Shown: positions 1,960 to 46,578 of the stretch, in pieces
Position numbering within the stretch: the first letter of the stretch is position 1
Layout of the letters: each line of letters starts with the position of its first letter
From: Rickettsiales bacterium
GTDB lineage: Bacteria; Pseudomonadota; Alphaproteobacteria; Rickettsiales; JABSSG01
Assembly: GCA_020049805.1 (NCBI GenBank)
Contig: JAGVLN010000029.1
Span: 6,407 to 70,406 of the forward strand
DNA: 64,000 nucleotides
Reading direction: 5' to 3'
Notes under the pieces: model-generated
The model's input: the letters and a program-made list of their open reading frames with translations, nothing else
Databases searched by the model: none
Told to the model about the DNA's origin: nothing
Translations under genes and position numbers: made by a program

Positions 1960-2475
1960 ATGTACTTTAATTTATTATCAATAAAGTTATTGCTGCCTTT
2001 AATTATCCTATTGGCAATTACCTTTATTTTATCAATTCCACATAATTTTTTATATTTTGGTAACTTCACACCGTTATATTATTTAATTGTTGTGTATTAC
2101 TGGTACTTATTATTTCCTGCAACTTTACCACTTATTACTTTGTTTATTTTTGGTATATTGCAAGATATAATGATGGGAACTCCTCTTGGTATTACTCCCA
2201 TAACTTTAGTAACATTTCAATTAGTAATCGATTATTATAAAAGATTCATATCTAAAAAATCTTTTAATATAATATGGCTTGGATTCGCTTTGAGTTCATT
2301 ATATACAATTTTGTTGCAGTTAATAATTTTATATATATTTTTATCATATTCACTATCGCAGCTGTTATTTTTATTACAACAATGGTACTTCACATGTTTA
2401 GTATATCCAATTATGCACTACATTTTTGATTTAATAGTTAAGAAATGTAATATGTCCCAAGTTTATAATGCGTAA
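1960..2475 (+). CDS. mreD: rod shape-determining protein MreD
   Basis: 171-aa multi-pass membrane protein overlapping the PBP2 gene start by 8 nt. This is the classical mreD-mrdA arrangement. Confidence 0.7.
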   Translation: MYFNLLSIKLLLPLIILLAITFILSIPHNFLYFGNFTPLYYLIVVYYWYLLFPATLPLITLFIFGILQDIMMGTPLGITPITLVTFQLVIDYYKRFISKKSFNIIWLGFALSSLYTILLQLIILYIFLSYSLSQLLFLLQQWYFTCLVYPIMHYIFDLIVKKCNMSQVYNA

Positions 2476-4258
2476 CGATAAAACATTAAAATCACAAGTT
2501 TTTTCACGGAGAGTATTTGTCTTATCACTACTGCAATGTGTAGTAATGTTCATTTTTGCTTGTAGAATGTTCTTCCTGCAAATTATAAAATCTAAAGAAT
2601 ATAAAACCTTATCTGATAAAAATAGTATTAACGTAATCTTTCTTGAACCTGAACGAGGCAAGATTATTGATAGAAATAATGTTCAATTAGCACTCAGTAC
2701 TAATAATTACAAATTAATTTTATATCGTGAAAAAAATACCAATATAGAAGTCTTATTAATTAAATTAACAGATATTTTTAAATGGAACGAACCAACCAAA
2801 AATATGGTAGCTAAAAAAATGCAAGCTGCAATATATCTACGACCAACAGCTATCGTGGATTATGTATCTTGGGATAATGTATGTAAATTTGAAGAAATTT
2901 CTTACGAACTTCCGGGTATATATATAGAAAAAGGTCTTATTAGGGATTACGTATTTAATGATTTATTTGCTCACGTTATTGGCTATATGGGTATGCCAAA
3001 TGCAACTGAAATTAAGAATTATAATTTATCGCATTATAAGGATTTTAAAATTGGTAAATCAGGAATAGAGAAAGGTTTTGAAAGGGAGTTAATGGGTGAA
3101 TTTGGTATGAAAAAGGTAGAAGTTGATGCCTATCGTGCTATAGTACGCGAGCTCTCAGAACAAAGTAGTAACCCAGGAAAAGATTTAAAATTAACTATTG
3201 ATTGTGAGTTACAAAAATTTGTAGGTGAAAAATTGAAAGATGAATGGGCTAGTGCGGTAGTTATGGATGTAAATAGCGGTAATGTTTTATCGATGGTTTC
3301 TACTCCAACTTTTGATCCGAATTTATTTTCCCGAGGAATTTCAGAAGAACAATGGAATAGTATTGTTAATCACCGATCATTACCGTTAACTAATAAAAGT
3401 ATTTCTAAATTATATCCCCCGGGTTCGACTTTTAAAGTTAATATAGCGCTTGCTATTCTTCATCATGGTATAGACCCTAATCATAAAGTTTTTTGTAATG
3501 GGGCGGTGCAAATTAATGGTCATACATTTAAATGTTGGAAAAAAGGAGGGCATGGTTCTGTGAACCTTCAGCAAGCAATAAAAGGGTCATGCAATTGTTA
3601 TTTTTATTTAATGGGGCTTCAAGCTGGTATCGATGATATTAATTATACAGCAGATTTATTAGGAATAGGTAAGCTAACAAATATTAATTTACCTAATGAA
3701 CTTGCAGGTATCAATCCAACTAAAAAATGGAAGAAAAAATTGTATGGTCAACAATGGTATGTTGGGGATACAGTAAATACATGTGTTGGGCAAGGTTATG
3801 TTCTCGCTACTCCATTACAGATAGTAACTATGATGGCAAGGATCGCGTCAGGTAATAATGTTTTTCCACAATTAGTGACTAATGTAGGGGGAAGAGAAAT
3901 AATACCAAATAAATTTGATAAGCTAAATATTAAACCAGAGCATTTAGAATTGATAAGGGCTGGTTTGGAAGATGCAAGTAATCAGCCAGGAGGTACGAGC
4001 TTTGCTAGTAGAATTATCGAACCGGAGTTTAGGATGGCAGGTAAAACAGGTACTGCTCAAGTAATTTCTAAGGACACAGCTGAAAATAGATCAGCTTTTG
4101 CTAAACATTTGCAAAGCCATTCCATTTTTACTGGTTTTGCCCCAGCATATGCCCCTAAATATGCTTGTGTAGTAATTGTAGATCATGGGGGATGGGGCGC
4201 AGTTAAGGCTGCACCAATAGCTGCAGATATATTAAAATATGCACAATTAAATTGCTAA
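2468..4258 (+). CDS. mrdA: penicillin-binding protein 2 (elongasome transpeptidase)
   Basis: N-terminal TM anchor, SxxK (GSTFKV), SxN (SCN) and KTG (GKTGTAQ) motifs; 596 aa. Confidence 0.92.
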   Translation: MRNDKTLKSQVFSRRVFVLSLLQCVVMFIFACRMFFLQIIKSKEYKTLSDKNSINVIFLEPERGKIIDRNNVQLALSTNNYKLILYREKNTNIEVLLIKLTDIFKWNEPTKNMVAKKMQAAIYLRPTAIVDYVSWDNVCKFEEISYELPGIYIEKGLIRDYVFNDLFAHVIGYMGMPNATEIKNYNLSHYKDFKIGKSGIEKGFERELMGEFGMKKVEVDAYRAIVRELSEQSSNPGKDLKLTIDCELQKFVGEKLKDEWASAVVMDVNSGNVLSMVSTPTFDPNLFSRGISEEQWNSIVNHRSLPLTNKSISKLYPPGSTFKVNIALAILHHGIDPNHKVFCNGAVQINGHTFKCWKKGGHGSVNLQQAIKGSCNCYFYLMGLQAGIDDINYTADLLGIGKLTNINLPNELAGINPTKKWKKKLYGQQWYVGDTVNTCVGQGYVLATPLQIVTMMARIASGNNVFPQLVTNVGGREIIPNKFDKLNIKPEHLELIRAGLEDASNQPGGTSFASRIIEPEFRMAGKTGTAQVISKDTAENRSAFAKHLQSHSIFTGFAPAYAPKYACVVIVDHGGWGAVKAAPIAADILKYAQLNC

Positions 4259-4336: not shown

Positions 4337-6625
4337 ATGACTAAAAGTTCAACTAATGATATTGATAAAATTACCAGCCAGGATGCGCTTGAATATCATA
4401 AGCAAGGCAGTCCTGGGAAAATCGCGATTTTACCAACTAAACCACTATTAACACAAAGAGATTTATCATTAGCTTATTCACCAGGAGTTGCTTATCCTTG
4501 CTTGAAAATTAATCAAGACCCTAATGCTGCGTATGATTATACCTCTAAGGGTAACCTAGTAGCAGTAATTTCAAATGGTACGGCGGTGCTTGGATTAGGA
4601 GACTTAGGACCACTCGCTTCTAAACCTGTTATGGAAGGAAAAGCAGTTCTATTTAAACGTTTTGCAGGTATAGATGCTATAGATTTAGAAGTAGACACTA
4701 AAGATACTGAAGAGTTTATTAATGCGATTAAATATTTAGGCCCAAGTTTCGGTGGTATTAATTTAGAAGATATCAAAGCTCCAGAATGTTTCGTTATTGA
4801 AAGTAAGCTTAAAGAATTAATGGATATACCAGTATTTCATGATGATCAACATGGTACAGCTATTATTACATTGGCAGCGTTGATTAATGCTGCATATTTA
4901 ACAGATAGGGAGCTCTCTAAAATAAAGGTAGTAGTAAATGGGGCAGGAGCAGCCTCTATTGCTTGTGTTGAATTAATTCAAGCAATGGGTGTAAAAAAAG
5001 AAAATGTAATTTTATGCGATACTAAAGGAGTGATTTATAAAAATCGTACTGAAGGGATGAATAAGTGGAAAGAAGAGCATGCAATTGATACTGAAAAAAG
5101 GACCCTAGCTGAGGCGTTAGAAGGCGCTGATGTATTCTTAGGATTGTCAGTAAAGGGAGCAGTAACTTCTAACATGGTAAAATCAATGGCTAAAAATCCA
5201 ATTATTTTTGCTATGGCTAATCCAGACCCTGAAATAACGCCTGAAGAAATATTAGAGGTACGTAAAGATGCCATTATTGCTACTGGGCGTTCAGATTATA
5301 ATAATCAAGTTAACAATGTTATGGGTTTTCCTTATATTTTTAGAGGTGCGCTTGATGTTAGAGCTTCTACTATAAATGACAAAATGAAAATTGCGGCAGC
5401 ACAGGCTATTGCTCAACTTGCTCGTGAACCTGTTCCAAATGAAGTATTAGCAGCTTATTCAGGTAAAAAATTATCATTTGGCCCAGAATATATTATTCCT
5501 GTACCATTTGACTCTCGTTTAATCACTACAGTTCCAATAGCTGTGGCTAAGGCAGCGATTGAATCTGGTGTAGCAAAAAAAGCAATTGCTGATTTTGCAT
5601 TATACAAACGTGAATTACAGTCGCGACTTAACCCAGCAGCCAATACTTTAAACTTAATTTTTGAAAAAGCTAAAGCTAATCAAAAAAGGATTATTTTTGC
5701 TGATGGCGAGGAAGAAGAAGTGATTAAGGCTGCAATGTCCATTCGTGATAATGAATTAGGCAAACCAATTCTTGTTGGCAGAAAGCAGAAAATTATAGAA
5801 ACTTTTGCAACTTTTGGTAGTGAAGAAACCTTAGATGGTATAGAAATTGCTAATGCAGCACTCTCTACTAAAGTAGATCAATATATAGAATTTCTATATA
5901 AGAAAAACCAACGTAATGGTTTATTACGTAGGGATTGTACTCGTTTAGTTAAAGGTGATCGAAATATTTTTTCAGCATGTATGTTAGCATGTGGAGATGG
6001 TGATGCTTTGCTAGCAGGGCATTCTCGTAATTATATGTCTACATTAGATGATATTTTAAAAGTAATTGATAGTAAGCCAAATTCAGAAGTATTTGGTTTA
6101 TCGGTAATGATTGCTGCTGGTAGAAGTATTTTTGTAGCTGATTCGACGGTTCATATTTCTCCGAGTGATGAGCAATTAGCTGCAATCGCGATACAGACTG
6201 CTGCTAAAGCAAGAGAGTTTGGCCATACGCCTAGAGTAGCTTTTTTATCTTTCTCCAATTTTGGAGGTCCTTCTTCAGGTTATGAGCGTACAGTAAATAT
6301 TAGAAAAGCTGTTGAAATTTTAGATAAAAATAAGACTGTTGATTTTGAGTATGATGGTGAAATGTCAGCTGATGTAGCGTTAAATGAACAAATGCGAGCG
6401 TTATATCCTTTTTGTCGTTTAAGTAAACCAGCAAATGTTTTGATTATGCCATCATTACATGCAGCAAATGTTTCATCCAAATTACTCCAAGAACTTGGAG
6501 GAGGGACATTTATTGGACCTATTATAGTTGGATTAAGTAAGCCTGTTCAAATAGTACATATGGAAGCTTCAGTATCCGAGTTAATAAATATGGCAGTAAT
6601 TGCTGCAGCTGAAGGTGGGTTATAG
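4337..6625 (+). CDS. maeB: NADP-dependent malic enzyme (long form with PTA-like C-terminal domain)
   Basis: 762 aa. Malic enzyme N-terminal and NAD-binding blocks (AYSPGVA, FHDDQHGTA, VVNGAGAA) plus a ~330-aa phosphotransacetylase-like tail. Confidence 0.95.
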   Translation: MTKSSTNDIDKITSQDALEYHKQGSPGKIAILPTKPLLTQRDLSLAYSPGVAYPCLKINQDPNAAYDYTSKGNLVAVISNGTAVLGLGDLGPLASKPVMEGKAVLFKRFAGIDAIDLEVDTKDTEEFINAIKYLGPSFGGINLEDIKAPECFVIESKLKELMDIPVFHDDQHGTAIITLAALINAAYLTDRELSKIKVVVNGAGAASIACVELIQAMGVKKENVILCDTKGVIYKNRTEGMNKWKEEHAIDTEKRTLAEALEGADVFLGLSVKGAVTSNMVKSMAKNPIIFAMANPDPEITPEEILEVRKDAIIATGRSDYNNQVNNVMGFPYIFRGALDVRASTINDKMKIAAAQAIAQLAREPVPNEVLAAYSGKKLSFGPEYIIPVPFDSRLITTVPIAVAKAAIESGVAKKAIADFALYKRELQSRLNPAANTLNLIFEKAKANQKRIIFADGEEEEVIKAAMSIRDNELGKPILVGRKQKIIETFATFGSEETLDGIEIANAALSTKVDQYIEFLYKKNQRNGLLRRDCTRLVKGDRNIFSACMLACGDGDALLAGHSRNYMSTLDDILKVIDSKPNSEVFGLSVMIAAGRSIFVADSTVHISPSDEQLAAIAIQTAAKAREFGHTPRVAFLSFSNFGGPSSGYERTVNIRKAVEILDKNKTVDFEYDGEMSADVALNEQMRALYPFCRLSKPANVLIMPSLHAANVSSKLLQELGGGTFIGPIIVGLSKPVQIVHMEASVSELINMAVIAAAEGGL

Positions 6626-40394: not shown

Positions 40395-40868
40395 TTATAA
40401 ATCTTTTGTCTTAATTAGAATAGACCCATCTTGTTCCAAACCATTAGCAAGATATTTACTACGGGCCTCATGTTCAATAACCGCTCTATTTGCTTCAAAA
40501 ATTTTAAGTGGATTATGAGTTCTAATATTTAAGCCAAAATGATCTGACAATGCTTCCCACTCAATTTCACAGCGTATTTGTTTATCTCTATCTTTGCCCC
40601 AGAATATAACAACTAATCTTTTAGGATCATAATATGCCTTAGGCTCTAAAAAAATTAGATCACGTTGATCAACCATACCAAGAACATTGAGTATATTTAA
40701 TACTGAATTAAGTTCTATACTTTTATTACCACTCTCAAAACTTGATATCGTAGGTGCACTAACACCTGCTAATATCGCTAAACGTTGTTGAGTTAGAGCT
40801 TGTTTTTTGCGTCTTTGTTTTGCTTCTTCAACAATAATTGGCCAATTAATGTAAAAGTTCCGTTCCAT
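40395..40868 (-). CDS. XRE-family HTH protein with extra ~80-aa C-terminal domain; putative HipA partner/antitoxin
   Basis: HTH block LTQQRLAILAGVSAPTISSFESGNKSIELNSVLNILNVLGM. The C-terminal 79 aa are ~42% identical (hand alignment) to the C-terminus of the AAA ATPase at 46741-48171. It overlaps the hipA 3' end by 76 nt. Confidence 0.75.
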   Translation of the reverse strand: MERNFYINWPIIVEEAKQRRKKQALTQQRLAILAGVSAPTISSFESGNKSIELNSVLNILNVLGMVDQRDLIFLEPKAYYDPKRLVVIFWGKDRDKQIRCEIEWEALSDHFGLNIRTHNPLKIFEANRAVIEHEARSKYLANGLEQDGSILIKTKDL

Positions 40869-42028
40869 CTTTTCTCCATAATTTCAATAACTCTATTTTT
40901 CAACTCTTTAGAGCCCACATTTGAATTTTCTATTGCTTCTAAAGCCTTATTTAAATTCTTACCTATATCTTCGACTGCAGTAATAATAACTTTTTCATTA
41001 AAATCAAAATCTCTTCCTAGCCGCAATATATGTTTAGGTAAGAGTTTACCTATTTTAAAATCCTCAACTCCATTAATTTTTAAAGCTATTGATTGATATT
41101 GTTTATAAAACGCTGCTCCTAACTGATCATAAGATGGTGTAAGACGCAATCCATCCCTACTATAAAGCATAGCAAAGTTTTTTAAATGTGCATCAGTATT
41201 ACCAACTAAAAGACATACTAAAACCCGTCTAAATAATTTATACACATCACTAATTATACAATTAGGATTACCGTAAATAAATTGTGCCATGTCCTCATAG
41301 GAGCCTTTATATTTATCGAATGAACGATGTCCTAATAACTGATTAAATTCCTCAAAATGTATTTTTTCTCCAGATGGCCTTCTATCAAATCGACGAATAA
41401 CTAAAGCTCTTTCTTTTATTGAATCTATGTTATCAACAATTTCCATTTCAACCACACTATCATCGTGTAATAGCTTACTTACTACCAATGTAGTGATAAA
41501 TTCTAATTCAATTAACTCTGCAAGATTATCAGAAGGTAATTTTGCAATATGAGTACTTAATTCGTTATATTTAACAGGTCGATAAGATTTTCCTTCCTGA
41601 ACTAATAATAATTTACGCTGCACACCAGGAAGTGACGCTCTACCAATTAACGCCGCTTTAGTTACTTTATCTTCATGACTTAAATTACGTCTTGGTATAG
41701 GATCAGGGTCAATAATTGACACTGCTCCAGCAAGGTCATATCCAAACCCTAATAAGAGAGCAAAACTATCATTCGGATCCACGCCTAAAACTTTTGCCTG
41801 AGCATTTTTGAACCATCCTTCAGCAACTAAATTATCAAAAAAAGGAGGTAAGCCATTTTCAGAAATTATAGGTTTTTCAGATATAGGCAAAGTGTAAGCA
41901 ATTTGAGAATTCCCGGCATTAATGTAATCAACATCATATGTAAAACTATACCTATTACCTGGCTCCTGTTGCAACCTCCCAGCATAAAGATCCTTAAAAT
42001 AAATATTTCCCCAAAGTAGTGATGCCAT
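40793..42028 (-). CDS. hipA: HipA-family serine/threonine kinase toxin
   Basis: Couple_hipA-like N-terminus (PPFFDNLVAEGW), Gly-rich loop LPGVQRKLLL, catalytic loop GNTDAHLKNF, Mg-binding TPSYDQLG. All catalytic residues are present. Confidence 0.9.
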   Translation of the reverse strand: MASLLWGNIYFKDLYAGRLQQEPGNRYSFTYDVDYINAGNSQIAYTLPISEKPIISENGLPPFFDNLVAEGWFKNAQAKVLGVDPNDSFALLLGFGYDLAGAVSIIDPDPIPRRNLSHEDKVTKAALIGRASLPGVQRKLLLVQEGKSYRPVKYNELSTHIAKLPSDNLAELIELEFITTLVVSKLLHDDSVVEMEIVDNIDSIKERALVIRRFDRRPSGEKIHFEEFNQLLGHRSFDKYKGSYEDMAQFIYGNPNCIISDVYKLFRRVLVCLLVGNTDAHLKNFAMLYSRDGLRLTPSYDQLGAAFYKQYQSIALKINGVEDFKIGKLLPKHILRLGRDFDFNEKVIITAVEDIGKNLNKALEAIENSNVGSKELKNRVIEIMEKRWNGTFTLIGQLLLKKQNKDAKNKL

Positions 42029-42050: not shown

Positions 42051-42108
42051 ATAAACTATAGTTTATCATACTATAAAATAATAAGCAATATATAAACTAT
42101 AGTTTATA
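42051..42108. promoter_or_regulatory. twin palindromic operators overlapping a putative hipA promoter
   Basis: ATAAACTATAGTTTAT (42051-42066, perfect 16-mer) and TATAAACTATAGTTTATA (42091-42108, perfect 18-mer) have centres 41 bp apart. On the minus strand, TTGCTT (42083-42088), a 17-nt spacer and TAAACT (42060-65) form a sigma70-like promoter 23-80 bp upstream of the hipA ATG. Confidence 0.65.
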
Positions 42109-42165
42109 TTTTCTGAATAATTGCCGCAAAATATAAATCATGGTTTATATTCTATGTGCAAGAAC

Positions 42166-42474
42166 TTAAGAGCCTATAATCGAAGGACTATTATTAATGC
42201 ATGAAAGCATGTTTTGAAAATTTAAAATAAGAGGAAAGCATTGTTGAGTAATATAAGCAACGGTAGTAAGAGTATTATTCACTATCCCTTTTAAGTTATC
42301 CATTATACCACTATCTTGCAAGGCTTTTAGCAAATAATATACGGCCCATACGGCCGGTATAGTCATGGTATAATACCAATATCTTATCACGCCAAAAACA
42401 ACTTGGCCAGCACCTGTAAATATTCTTTTCATGGCATCAGGAAAGTATCTTAACCACATGAACCATTGAAACAT
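42166..42474 (-). CDS. small membrane protein, hypothetical
   Basis: 102-aa ORF with two hydrophobic segments and no recognisable motif. Confidence 0.35.
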   Translation of the reverse strand: MFQWFMWLRYFPDAMKRIFTGAGQVVFGVIRYWYYTMTIPAVWAVYYLLKALQDSGIMDNLKGIVNNTLTTVAYITQQCFPLILNFQNMLSCINNSPSIIGS

Positions 42475-43821: not shown

Positions 43822-43896
43822 ATGTTGACAATCTATCATAGTAAAGTTAATTTGGAAAAAAAATCTTAATATTTGTTTCGCGAAAGTAGGAGTATC

Positions 43897-46578
43897 ATGA
43901 GCACTAGTTCTAAAAAACTTGCAGTAAATAAAAAATTTAAAGTTGGCCAACAGGAATATACTTATTATTGCCTAAAATCAGCAGCTGAAGAATTAGGTAA
44001 AGATATTTCTAAATTACCAATTACACTAAAAATCTTACTTGAAAATTTACTCCGTAATCAAGATGGTAAAACTGTTGTGATTGAAGATATTGCTGCAGTA
44101 ATGGATTGGGTTCAAACACAACGTTCGGATCATGAAATTGCTTTCCGCCCAGCTAGAGTACTAATGCAAGATTTTACCGGTGTGCCAGCAATAGTAGATT
44201 TGGCAGCTATGCGTGATGCTATGGTTAAGCTTAAAGGAGATCCTAAAAAAATTAACCCACTTTCGCCCGTAGATTTAGTAATCGATCATTCTGTCCAAGT
44301 AGATTATTACGGTGATAAAGACTCTTTTGAAAAAAACGTAGAAAAAGAGTTTGAACGTAATAAAGAACGGTATGAATTTCTACGTTGGGGTCAAGAAGCA
44401 TTAGATAATTTTAAAGTAGTGCCACCAGGCACTGGTATTTGCCATCAAGTAAATTTAGAATATTTAGCTAAAGTTGTATGGTCTAAAAAAAATCATGGTG
44501 AATTAGTTGCTTACCCCGACACCGTTTTTGGTACCGATAGCCATACTACTATGGTAAATGGTTTAGCGGTTTTAGGCTGGGGTGTAGGGGGTATTGAAGC
44601 AGAAGCAGCAATGCTAGGACAACCAACCTCTATGGTTATTCCGGAAGTAATAGGGTTTAAACTTACTGGCCAGCTCTCAGAAGGAGTGACCGCAACTGAT
44701 TTAGTATTAACCGTAACTAATATTTTACGACAAAAAGGTGTAGTAGGTAAGTTTGTAGAGTTTTTCGGTCCTGGCTTAGAAAGCTTGTCTTTAGCAGATC
44801 GCGCTACTATTGCCAATATGTCGCCTGAATTTGGCGCAACTTGCGGCTATTTCCCAATAGATCAAGAGACTTTAAATTATTTAAAACTTTCTGGCCGTGA
44901 CCAACATCAAATCGAGCTGGTAGAAAATTATGCTAAATTACAAGGAATTTGGCATGATCATAATTATACTGACCCAATATTTACTAGCATTATTGAATTA
45001 GACCTAACAACAGTAGAACCTTGTATAGCTGGACCAAAACGTCCTCAAGATAAAGTATTATTATCACAAGTGCCTGGTTCCCTCATAAAAGAACTAGAAA
45101 ATTCCATCAATCCTAATAAATCTATCGATATTAAACACCAGGTTGAAGGAGAAGATTTTAAACTTGGTCATGGAGATTTAGTAATTGCTGCTATTACTAG
45201 CTGTACTAATACTTCAAATCCTAGTGTAATGATTGCTGCTGGCTTAATTGCTAAAAAAGCTTATGAAAAAGGCTTGAAAGTTAAACCTTGGGTCAAAACT
45301 TCTTTAGCACCTGGCTCAAAAGTAGTAACAGAATATTTAGCAGCTACTAATTTACAAGAATATTTAGACAAAGTTGGTTTTTACTTAGTCGGTTATGGCT
45401 GCACTACCTGTATTGGTAATTCCGGACCACTTCATCAACCAATCGAAGATGTAATTAAAAATAATAAATTAATGGTAGCAGCGGCATTATCTGGTAACCG
45501 TAATTTTGAAGGCAGGATTCATCCATTTGTTCAAGCAAGCTACCTAACTTCACCACCATTAGTAGTTGCATACGCTTTGGCTGGAACGATGAATATTGAC
45601 TTAACACATGAAGCAATTGGTAAGGATAAAAATGGCCAAGACATATATTTGAAAGACATTTGGCCATCTAACCAAGAAATAAATGACTATGTTCAAAAAT
45701 ATGTTAGCCCAAAAATGTTTAGGGAAAAATATCAAGATGTATTTAGCGGCGATCATTTATGGCAAAAAATGCAGGTCACCAAAAGTATGAATTACGATTG
45801 GAATGAAGATAGTACTTATGTTAAGAACCCGCCATTTTTTGAGCATATGCAAAGAGATGCTGGTACTATTAAAGAAGTTAAATCAGCTAAATTATTAGCC
45901 TTACTTGGCGATAGTATTACCACCGATCATATTTCTCCAGCCGGTAATATTTCCAATACCAGCCCAGCTGCTAAATATTTACAAGCAAATGGTGTGCAGC
46001 CAGCTGACTTTAACTCTTATGGCGCAAGACGAGGCAATCATGAAGTAATGATGCGTGGTACTTTTGCTAACATCAGGATCAAGAACGAACTTAATCCAGG
46101 TATTGAAGGAGGCGTTACTATCTATTTGCCAACTAAAGAAGTTATGAGCATTTATGACGCAGCTATGAAGTATAAGGAACAAAACATTCCTTTGATTATT
46201 ATTGCTGGCAAAGAATACGGCACTGGTTCTTCCCGAGATTGGGCAGCTAAAGGGCCTCGCTTACTTGGCGTTAAAGCTGTAATTGCTGAAAGTTTTGAAC
46301 GGATTCATCGTTCTAACTTAGTTGGTATGGGCGTAATACCTTTAGTTTTCAAGGGCGGTGTAACCCGTAAAGATTTAGAGTTACAGGGCGATGAAACTTT
46401 CGATATTATCGGTCTTTCACCAAACATGAAACCAAAATCTGAGGTAAGCCTAGTCATCACTTATTCTAATGGCATGACTAAGGAAATTAGTTTGATTTGC
46501 CGCGTGGATACTGTTCAAGAAATTGAATATTTGAAGCATGATGGGATTTTACCTTATATGGTAAGGGAGTTGCTGTAG
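43897..46578 (+). CDS. acnA: aconitate hydratase A
   Basis: About 890 aa with Fe-S ligand blocks ITSCTNTSNP and GCTTCIGNSG and C-terminal swivel GSSRDWAAKG. An AGGAG RBS precedes the ATG at 43897. Confidence 0.97.
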   Translation: MSTSSKKLAVNKKFKVGQQEYTYYCLKSAAEELGKDISKLPITLKILLENLLRNQDGKTVVIEDIAAVMDWVQTQRSDHEIAFRPARVLMQDFTGVPAIVDLAAMRDAMVKLKGDPKKINPLSPVDLVIDHSVQVDYYGDKDSFEKNVEKEFERNKERYEFLRWGQEALDNFKVVPPGTGICHQVNLEYLAKVVWSKKNHGELVAYPDTVFGTDSHTTMVNGLAVLGWGVGGIEAEAAMLGQPTSMVIPEVIGFKLTGQLSEGVTATDLVLTVTNILRQKGVVGKFVEFFGPGLESLSLADRATIANMSPEFGATCGYFPIDQETLNYLKLSGRDQHQIELVENYAKLQGIWHDHNYTDPIFTSIIELDLTTVEPCIAGPKRPQDKVLLSQVPGSLIKELENSINPNKSIDIKHQVEGEDFKLGHGDLVIAAITSCTNTSNPSVMIAAGLIAKKAYEKGLKVKPWVKTSLAPGSKVVTEYLAATNLQEYLDKVGFYLVGYGCTTCIGNSGPLHQPIEDVIKNNKLMVAAALSGNRNFEGRIHPFVQASYLTSPPLVVAYALAGTMNIDLTHEAIGKDKNGQDIYLKDIWPSNQEINDYVQKYVSPKMFREKYQDVFSGDHLWQKMQVTKSMNYDWNEDSTYVKNPPFFEHMQRDAGTIKEVKSAKLLALLGDSITTDHISPAGNISNTSPAAKYLQANGVQPADFNSYGARRGNHEVMMRGTFANIRIKNELNPGIEGGVTIYLPTKEVMSIYDAAMKYKEQNIPLIIIAGKEYGTGSSRDWAAKGPRLLGVKAVIAESFERIHRSNLVGMGVIPLVFKGGVTRKDLELQGDETFDIIGLSPNMKPKSEVSLVITYSNGMTKEISLICRVDTVQEIEYLKHDGILPYMVRELL

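Follow-up and report, generated by a model that had tools for sequence, protein, structure and literature searches.

How can a toxin-antitoxin (TA) module in which the kinase toxin gene comes first keep its antitoxin in excess? The question is raised by a gene pair in a 64,000-nucleotide (nt) stretch of contig JAGVLN010000029.1 from a Rickettsiales bacterium (positions 6,407 to 70,406 of the forward strand; the whole of this stretch is referred to below as the window). In this pair hipA, which encodes a putative kinase toxin, precedes the gene of a HipB-like helix-turn-helix (HTH) protein and overlaps it by 76 nt. The pair is probably one chromosomal representative of a kinase-first type II HipA/HipB-like TA cassette that has spread horizontally. 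Such a cassette would be autoregulated and would secure its excess of antitoxin through translation initiation. The kinase-first gene order, which the first-pass annotation of this DNA had taken for an unusual organization, was already known from the hipAB subclades and the hipEB family (PMC8262856), and the current understanding of Hip systems is not overturned. As far as checked, three features are apparently undescribed: a HipB-like antitoxin fused to a DUF1488 domain, a dual-coded overlap of 70 to 91 nt with an embedded Shine-Dalgarno (SD) sequence, and a phased array of ATAAA-N6-TTTAT palindromes. With its overlap conserved across several phyla, the cassette illustrates how a toxin-first kinase TA module can maintain antitoxin excess.

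An intact kinase gene followed by a two-domain HTH gene

The two genes and the domains of their products are as follows.

40793..42028, minus strand: hipA, encoding a 411-amino-acid HipA-family Ser/Thr kinase, the putative toxin (open reading frame [ORF] and Pfam)
hipA amino acids 8-105: Couple_hipA, the N-subdomain 1 (E value, 1.6e-21; 77.1 bits, cutoff 22.5; Pfam)
hipA amino acids 132-352: HipA_C, the core kinase (E value, 1.7e-37; 129.6 bits, cutoff 30.5; Pfam)
40395..40868, minus strand: putative HipB-like antitoxin/repressor gene, 157 amino acids, N-terminal XRE HTH plus C-terminal DUF1488
40674..40844, minus strand: HTH domain, amino acids 9-65, with helices at 9-22, 27-34, 38-45, and 53-62 (AlphaFold model)
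40416..40655, minus strand: DUF1488 domain, amino acids 72-151 (PF07369 and model match to PDB 2gpi)

The description of hipA as an intact kinase was borne out, since both Pfam domains scored over their cutoffs and the motifs that had been quoted for it, located within PGVQRKLLL (amino acids 134 to 142), GNTDAHLKNF (276 to 285), and PSYD (298 to 301), fall on invariant columns of the family. Four core kinase motifs were recognized, namely, SLPGVQRK (132 to 139), THIAK (159 to 163), NTDAHLKNF (277 to 285), and PSYD (298 to 301). In an alignment of 25 family members, S132, G135, Q137, R138, K139, K163, D279, H281, K283, N284, and D301 were invariant, and the window hipA retains every one of these catalytic-motif residues. 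Compared by eye, its core motifs have counterparts in SLAGAQPK, THILKP, GTDAHAKNYS, and APLYD, the motifs given for clade I in the portion of Table S1 of PMC8262856 considered here. Judged by motif content, the gene should thus encode a competent kinase, with its activity and toxicity predicted. The closest kinases of solved structure were HipT of Legionella pneumophila (E value, 2.4e-18) and Escherichia coli HipA (approximately 1e-12).

The 157-amino-acid protein matched HTH_3 at amino acids 17 to 64 (E value, 2.6e-7; 31 bits against a cutoff of 23) and DUF1488 (PF07369) with 58.4 bits (cutoff, 22; E value, 7.4e-16) in the Pfam search, so that the call of a DUF1488-like domain, made in the first-pass annotation, proved right. 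In its AlphaFold model (mean predicted local distance difference test [pLDDT] score, 86.8), an HTH of four helices precedes an alpha+beta domain. The top PDB match of this model in Foldseek was 2gpi, a DUF1488 structure (target template modeling [TM] score, 0.80; root mean square deviation, 2.2 Å; 83 columns), and the HTH half matched HipB of Legionella, Shewanella, and Pseudomonas fluorescens, with L. pneumophila HipB 8ezt (E value, 3.4e-6) and HipB 9u9g among the PDB entries (Foldseek and phmmer).

The ORF coordinates agree with the earlier placement of the HTH gene downstream of hipA, with a start at 40868 and a 76-nt overlap (40793 to 40868). Likewise, no alternative start was found upstream of the HTH: between the preceding in-frame stop (codon -5) and codon 70 of the antitoxin gene, ATG, GTG, or TTG occurs at codons 1 and 65 only, and since codon 65 lies past the HTH, this domain can be made only from the start at 40868. 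There is no HTH gene upstream of hipA, where the next ORF (42166..42474) gave only a subthreshold match to DUF2670 in Pfam. The absence of a conventional hipB at this position, also asserted before, was therefore upheld. As the overlap recurs in 60 modules from different genomes, it is neither a chance event nor an assembly artifact.

The overlap is dual coding and conserved

40793..40868, minus strand: dual-coding overlap of 76 nt, comprising the last 25 hipA codons (tail ...RWNGTFTLIGQLLLKKQNKDAKNKL) and the first 25 antitoxin codons (MERNFYINWPIIVEEAKQRRKKQAL, including HTH helix 1)

The length of the overlap varied little among the 60 modules. It was 76 nt in 34 of them, 91 nt in 17, and 70 nt in 5, with other values in the remaining 4, thus falling between 70 and 91 nt in 56 of the 60. 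In all modules examined, the antitoxin gene is in frame +2 (-1) relative to hipA. Both products are conserved over this region. The antitoxin N terminus MERQFRINWPAIVEEAKQRRK, which corresponds to HTH helix 1, is strongly conserved, and so is the basic C-terminal tail of HipA, which reads (M)EKRWNGSFxxxGQLLSK(R/K)QSKG... across the family. In agreement with double coding, the entropy of antitoxin third codon positions was 0.90 within the overlap versus 1.54 just downstream.

To obtain an expectation for the hipA frame, the first 19 antitoxin codons were swapped synonymously according to each locus's own usage, a procedure that left the frame open in 44% of the trials. The frame was open in 57 of 58 real loci, compared with 25.6 expected; the loci are related, so that this difference is not a strict probability, and synonymous sites are saturated at these distances. 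The homology of HipA to the solved HipT and HipA structures stops at about residue 388, which is exactly the position of the antitoxin ATG. The end of homology at this point, together with the conserved open tail, suggests that the HipA tail originated as a lineage-specific run-on across antitoxin helix 1 and later came under selection itself. In the AlphaFold model of HipA (mean pLDDT, 71), the tail forms a helix at residues 395 to 409 with a confidence of 36 to 48 at its end, which is too weak to interpret.

Translation signals favor the antitoxin

40874..40877, minus strand: SD sequence GGAG of the antitoxin, within hipA codons Met384-Glu385, 5 nt before the ATG

The two genes differ markedly in their initiation signals. 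The sequence ATGGAG at -11 to -6 of the antitoxin ATG is nearly invariant (entropy, 0.1 to 0.3), and GGAG (-9 to -6), which doubles as the HipA Met-Glu codons, was present in 50 of 57 loci. By comparison, hipA lacked any SD-like sequence between -17 and -4 at 41 of these loci. An SD match of at least 4 nt was found for hipA at 9 loci, versus 53 for the antitoxin. No conserved RNA structure that would hide the antitoxin SD was detected, its pairing probability being 0.50 against a regional mean of 0.54.

The first-pass annotation had proposed that the overlap implied translational coupling or occlusion. This does not fit an antitoxin gene with a near-invariant SD of its own and without a conserved sequestering structure. 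These two properties, along with the lack of a conserved slippery heptamer (see below), argue for independent initiation rather than coupling, and the signals predict strong initiation for the antitoxin and weak initiation for the toxin. Similarly, the overlap had been held to set the toxin-to-antitoxin ratio, for which there is a simpler account: hipA is mostly devoid of an SD, while that of the antitoxin is strong.

Phased palindromes upstream of hipA

42051..42066: palindrome ATAAACTATAGTTTAT, at -38 to -23 from the hipA ATG
42092..42107: palindrome ATAAACTATAGTTTAT, 41 bp upstream of the copy at 42051..42066
42133..42148: palindrome ATAAATCATGGTTTAT (plus-strand reading), 41 bp further upstream

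Three perfect ATAAA-N6-TTTAT palindromes spaced by 41 bp precede hipA in the window, two of them being the identical 16-mer. The whole window contains five matches to this motif against 1.8 expected, and three of the five are those upstream of hipA. The arrangement is general in the family. With up to one mismatch allowed, the 200 nt preceding hipA in 57 loci hold 13.0 copies of the motif per kb, compared with 0.116 per kb elsewhere in these loci, and 51 of the 57 carry two to five copies, whose positions cluster at about -16, -57, -98, and -135. These AT-rich palindromes are conspicuous in GC-rich hosts. In most loci the proximal palindrome abuts the hipA ATG, and in several loci a TTGAC(T) hexamer resembling a -35 box follows the -97 site, while the -57 site overlaps a TATAAA-like -10 box. 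Strongly enriched and phased, the palindromes are candidate operators, to which binding is predicted.

Family and distribution

A protein search with the 157-amino-acid product returned 52 clusters, nearly all of them 153 to 161 amino acids long, with HTH plus DUF1488 and 47 to 65% identity. That such a partner might recur beside other hipA genes, a point raised by the first-pass annotation, was confirmed at 65 loci in a scan of genomes, one per species. At essentially all of these for which upstream sequence was available, a hipA orthologue (50 to 61% identity) lies immediately upstream. A search with the kinase gave at least 120 clusters with E values below 1e-150, so that the antitoxin search had considerably underestimated the size of the family. 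The 65 loci come for the most part from uncultured Gammaproteobacteria (Legionellales, Coxiellaceae, and Francisellaceae among them) and Alphaproteobacteria (Rickettsiales, Hyphomicrobiales, and others), with a minority of Delta-/Myxococcales, Elusimicrobia, Opitutales, and Vampirovibrio.

The outer neighbors of the pair (rpoD, AbiEii, RHS, and others) were unrelated between loci in every locus examined, as expected for a mobile, horizontally spread two-gene cassette, which the pair accordingly appears to be. In the window, the module is flanked by ccmAB/acnA on one side and by rlpA/dacC on the other, and its composition gives no sign of recent horizontal transfer, the GC content of the module (0.30 to 0.33) being equal to that of the flanks.

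Six loci (L036, L044, L045, L060, L062, and L064) contain apparently decayed modules, in which hipA is truncated or frameshifted or the antitoxin is shortened. In L064, a convergent gene of 718 amino acids abuts the shortened antitoxin.

The DUF1488 domain

The extra C-terminal domain reported for the HTH protein is present as DUF1488, but it is not indispensable. In four Vampirovibrio/Melainabacteria genomes (L063, L065, L066, and L067; 2844-4225), an intact hipA, a 91-nt overlap, and the operator-like palindromes accompany a partner of 72 to 74 amino acids that consists of the HTH only. None of the four loci has a separate DUF1488 ORF, and a convergent gene comes next. In a neighbor-joining tree, the Vampirovibrio HipA clade is nested among the modules that bear DUF1488, which points to a secondary loss of the domain in that lineage. 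The HTH-only partner and the nested position together suggest that the essential part of the antitoxin's function can be carried out by the HTH half alone.

Where the domain is present, it is well conserved, residues C100, I102, A106, I131, K138, and Y139 being invariant in the family. An exhaustive search with residues 66 to 157 returned 210 representatives. Among the best of them were DUF1488 domains, 35 to 45% identical, fused C-terminally to Fic (P0220), to TIR/SEFIR (P0311), and to NTP_transf_8 nucleotidyltransferase (P0247, P0255, and P0288) domains. These fusions were located as follows.

L072, 3001-4410: Fic fusion P0220
L074, 3001-4431, and L075, 1958-3388: TIR/SEFIR fusion P0311
L073, 896-1975: NTP_transf_8 fusion P0255

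The Fic and TIR fusions adjoin SIR2_2 genes, and the fusion in L072 also adjoins a DUF87/HerA-like gene. This distribution suggests that conflict or defense proteins repeatedly carry DUF1488 as a module, and its presence on four unrelated scaffolds makes a module for regulation, sensing, or assembly likelier than an inhibitor specific for HipA. The members described so far are stand-alone proteins of approximately 85 to 90 amino acids with no known function (PMC2954204 and PMC4006907), and the literature found on DUF1488 is confined to the 2gpi fold, YrdB, and an integron cassette. Attachment to a HipA antitoxin and to Fic, TIR, and nucleotidyltransferase effectors thus gives the domain a first context. 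A broader proposal would make DUF1488 a portable regulatory or sensor module of conflict systems, so that the antitoxin would respond to a signal and a phage or stress cue would free the kinase, with the HipA tail and helix 1 acting as a coevolving interface. Taken as a whole, we regard this proposal as rather doubtful.

Comparison with known systems

In a classification of 1,239 Hip kinases, Gerdes, Baerentsen, and Brodersen (mBio 12:e01058-21, 2021; PMC8262856) reported few kinase-first modules, with 8 in the hipAB subclades of clades V/VI and VII and 12 in the HipE/hipEB family of clade IX, and noted that the gene order had been reversed several times. The window module resembles these in having the kinase before the HTH "HipB" gene and a kinase with N-subdomain 1 and the four core motifs. 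It differs from them as far as they are described in the main text of that work, in which neither DUF1488 nor an extra antitoxin domain, a long overlap, or operators appear for them. The signature peptides of the family were not found in the part of Table S1 considered, which itself holds no hipAB or hipEB rows (PMC8262856). In the literature searched, no paper dealing with HipA and DUF1488 together was found, nothing relevant on structures of HipB C-terminal domains was found from 2024 on, and the Legionella kinome paper does not cover the kinase family of the window.

The best matches of solved structure, HipT of L. pneumophila for the kinase core and HipB of the same species for the HTH, belong to HipBST (E. 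coli O127 and L. pneumophila Lpg2368-2370). That system, however, has three parts, its N-subdomain being a separate protein (the antitoxin HipS) and its first gene encoding HipB, whereas in the window the N-subdomain lies inside the kinase and the HTH gene comes last. With respect to DUF1488 proteins (PF07369; PDB 2gpi, Shew_3726; E. coli YrdB), the C-terminal 80 residues of the antitoxin match in both model and fold, the difference being that in the window it does not stand alone but forms a fusion with a HipB-like HTH.

The module shares with HipBA of E. coli K-12 a HipA_C kinase with Couple_hipA, an XRE-type HTH partner, and several upstream palindromes; hipBA of E. coli has four TATCC-N8-GGATA operators and multioperator autoregulation. 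Differences are found in the reversed gene order, the distant kinase (E value, approximately 1e-12), the antitoxin, which with DUF1488 is twice as long, the 76-nt dual-coded overlap, and the sequence and 41-bp phasing of the operator-like sites.

A more distantly related, apparently uncharacterized kinase-first pair is found on pSymA of Sinorhizobium meliloti 1021 (NC_003037.1, approximately 315280-317459).

L070: S. meliloti pSymA pair, hipA at 1323-2495 (390 amino acids) and HTH gene at 2471-3502 (343 amino acids)

As in the window, hipA comes first (35% identity; E value, 2e-56) and is overlapped by a downstream HTH gene, whose HTH is 47% identical to that of the window, including the N-terminal W..VEEA..RRK helix. 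The overlap, however, is only 25 nt, and the C-terminal stretch of approximately 270 amino acids of the partner has no Pfam match. This different C terminus indicates that the C-terminal module attached to a kinase-first Hip HTH is exchangeable, DUF1488 being one such module. No genes are listed at this pair in the PLSDB table. Plasmid pCFD-2-1 of Sphingobium sp. CFD-2 (L071) also has a kinase-first arrangement, with a 262-amino-acid HipA-domain protein (1713-2498) and a 330-amino-acid HTH protein (2495-3487) overlapping by 4 nt.

Proposed mechanism and alternative explanations

By analogy with HipBA of E. coli and Shewanella, HipA would arrest growth by phosphorylating a translation factor that the cell cannot do without, most likely an aminoacyl-tRNA synthetase, while the HTH-DUF1488 protein would bind and neutralize the kinase through its HipB-like HTH half. 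A dimer of the antitoxin, alone or with HipA, would occupy the ATAAA-N6-TTTAT operators and repress the operon. The spacing of about four helical turns would place these sites on one face of the DNA. Since the toxin gene comes first, the excess of antitoxin would be achieved at translation initiation: hipA would start without an SD, often against the proximal operator, and the antitoxin would start from the strong GGAG inside the end of hipA. The overlap itself would exist because HTH helix 1 is encoded where the hipA frame runs past its conserved core. DUF1488 would be an accessory at the C terminus that most likely serves regulation, through signal sensing or higher-order assembly, and would not be the neutralizing element.

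Several points weigh against this account. Identity between the kinase and any characterized Hip kinase is only about 25%, so that a target cannot be transferred from these. On the antitoxin, the HipB models scored below their cutoffs (54.5 bits against 71.65 for TIGR03070 [Y4mF/couple_hipB] and 23.4 bits against 79 for the HipB equivalog NF007271). The palindrome array of the window is shifted approximately 22 nt upstream of the commonest register, and the start-proximal site is missing from it. With regard to the origin of antitoxin excess, an internal promoter for the antitoxin may exist, although a consensus scan for internal sigma-70 promoters gave a background level of matches (14 versus 12.4 expected) and no terminator was found. 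Moreover, we infer the contact of the HTH half with HipA from a single source, the variant devoid of DUF1488, and toxicity, neutralization, kinase target, DNA binding, and the role of DUF1488 are all predictions from sequence and models.

Other explanations of the domain structure of the antitoxin were weighed. The module could be primarily an abortive-infection or stress-triggered system in which DUF1488 senses a phage or cellular ligand and releases or activates HipA, a reading that is possible if somewhat doubtful. It agrees with the occurrence of DUF1488 domains 40 to 50% identical to that of the window on three unrelated effectors (Fic, TIR/SEFIR, and NTP_transf_8), the first two of which have SIR2_2 genes as neighbors, and an inhibitor of one particular toxin would hardly be expected on effectors that differ in fold. 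An analogous idea was put forward by Gerdes et al. for Stl-like Hip antitoxins (PMC8262856). However, neither protein matched a PADLOC defense model, save for generic HTH hits, and the phage structure library BFVD yielded HTH matches only and no DUF1488-like fold. Furthermore, the window copy sits among housekeeping genes at the GC content of its host, DUF1488 domains have no known ligand or partner, and the domain is dispensable in Vampirovibrio. The loss in those four genomes, where an intact kinase has an HTH-only partner, also makes it unlikely that DUF1488 is the part that binds and neutralizes HipA, with the HTH serving for DNA binding only, as in antitoxins of the MqsA/HigA type. Toxin-first type II modules do often have two-domain antitoxins (MqsRA), and the six invariant residues attest to the conservation of DUF1488 in the family; nevertheless, the same DUF1488 subfamily is found on the Fic, TIR, and nucleotidyltransferase proteins, and in the solved HipBA complexes (PDB 3dnv and 4pu3) it is the HTH body itself that touches HipA.

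Two further readings concern the kinase and the overlap. It is very improbable that the kinase is a secreted effector of an AT-rich, probably intracellular host rather than a self-directed toxin, as proposed for Legionella Lpg2370/HipT. Its closest solved relative is HipT of L. pneumophila, many members come from metagenome-assembled genomes of Legionellales, Coxiellaceae, Francisellaceae, and Rickettsiales, and the basic tail of HipA is conserved, but the cassette also occurs in presumably free-living lineages (such as Vineibacter terrae, Myxococcales, Steroidobacteraceae, Hyphomicrobiales, and Opitutales), and the kinase is always tied to a repressor/antitoxin gene with operator-like sites, a combination that marks TA modules. 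As for the overlap, its service in programmed -1 frameshifting, yielding a HipA-HTH fusion similar to HipH/YjjJ, or in termination-reinitiation coupling is extremely improbable. The frame is right in all loci, the antitoxin being in -1 (+2) relative to hipA, and the window has an A_AAA_AAC sequence near the hipA stop. Against this, the antitoxin has a conserved and unmasked SD and an ATG of its own, and the hipA stop comes 70 to 91 nt after the antitoxin start, a distance that ordinary reinitiation would not span. Programmed frameshifting was rejected, as an X_XXY_YYZ heptamer was found in the overlap of only 4 of 57 loci, in none of them at a conserved position.

Gene calls and neighboring genes

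The public gene call for the source contig gives, in place of the antitoxin gene, a 93-amino-acid ORF (P0001; 40395-40673) that begins at Met65 and comprises DUF1488 only. Many metagenomic representatives of 90 to 100 amino acids with DUF1488 only likewise have this internal methionine (...LGM.D.R...) as their first residue or begin at methionines within the HTH (P0174, P0177-P0179, P0184, P0199, and others). It looks as though gene finders that limit same-strand overlaps systematically hide the HTH and the overlap, a miscall that probably makes stand-alone DUF1488 proteins seem more numerous than they are.

Two observations were made on the surroundings of the module. The ORF that adjoins the operator region (42166-42474, minus strand) encodes a hydrophobic product of 102 amino acids, scores 21.1 bits for DUF2670 against a cutoff of 25, and is not kept beside the module in other genomes. 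Farther out, the aconitase ORF (plus strand, TTG at 43873) and the ccmA ORF (minus strand, TTG at 43950) share 78 nt (43873-43950) in a head-to-head overlap, and the true starts of both are probably further in than those called mechanically.

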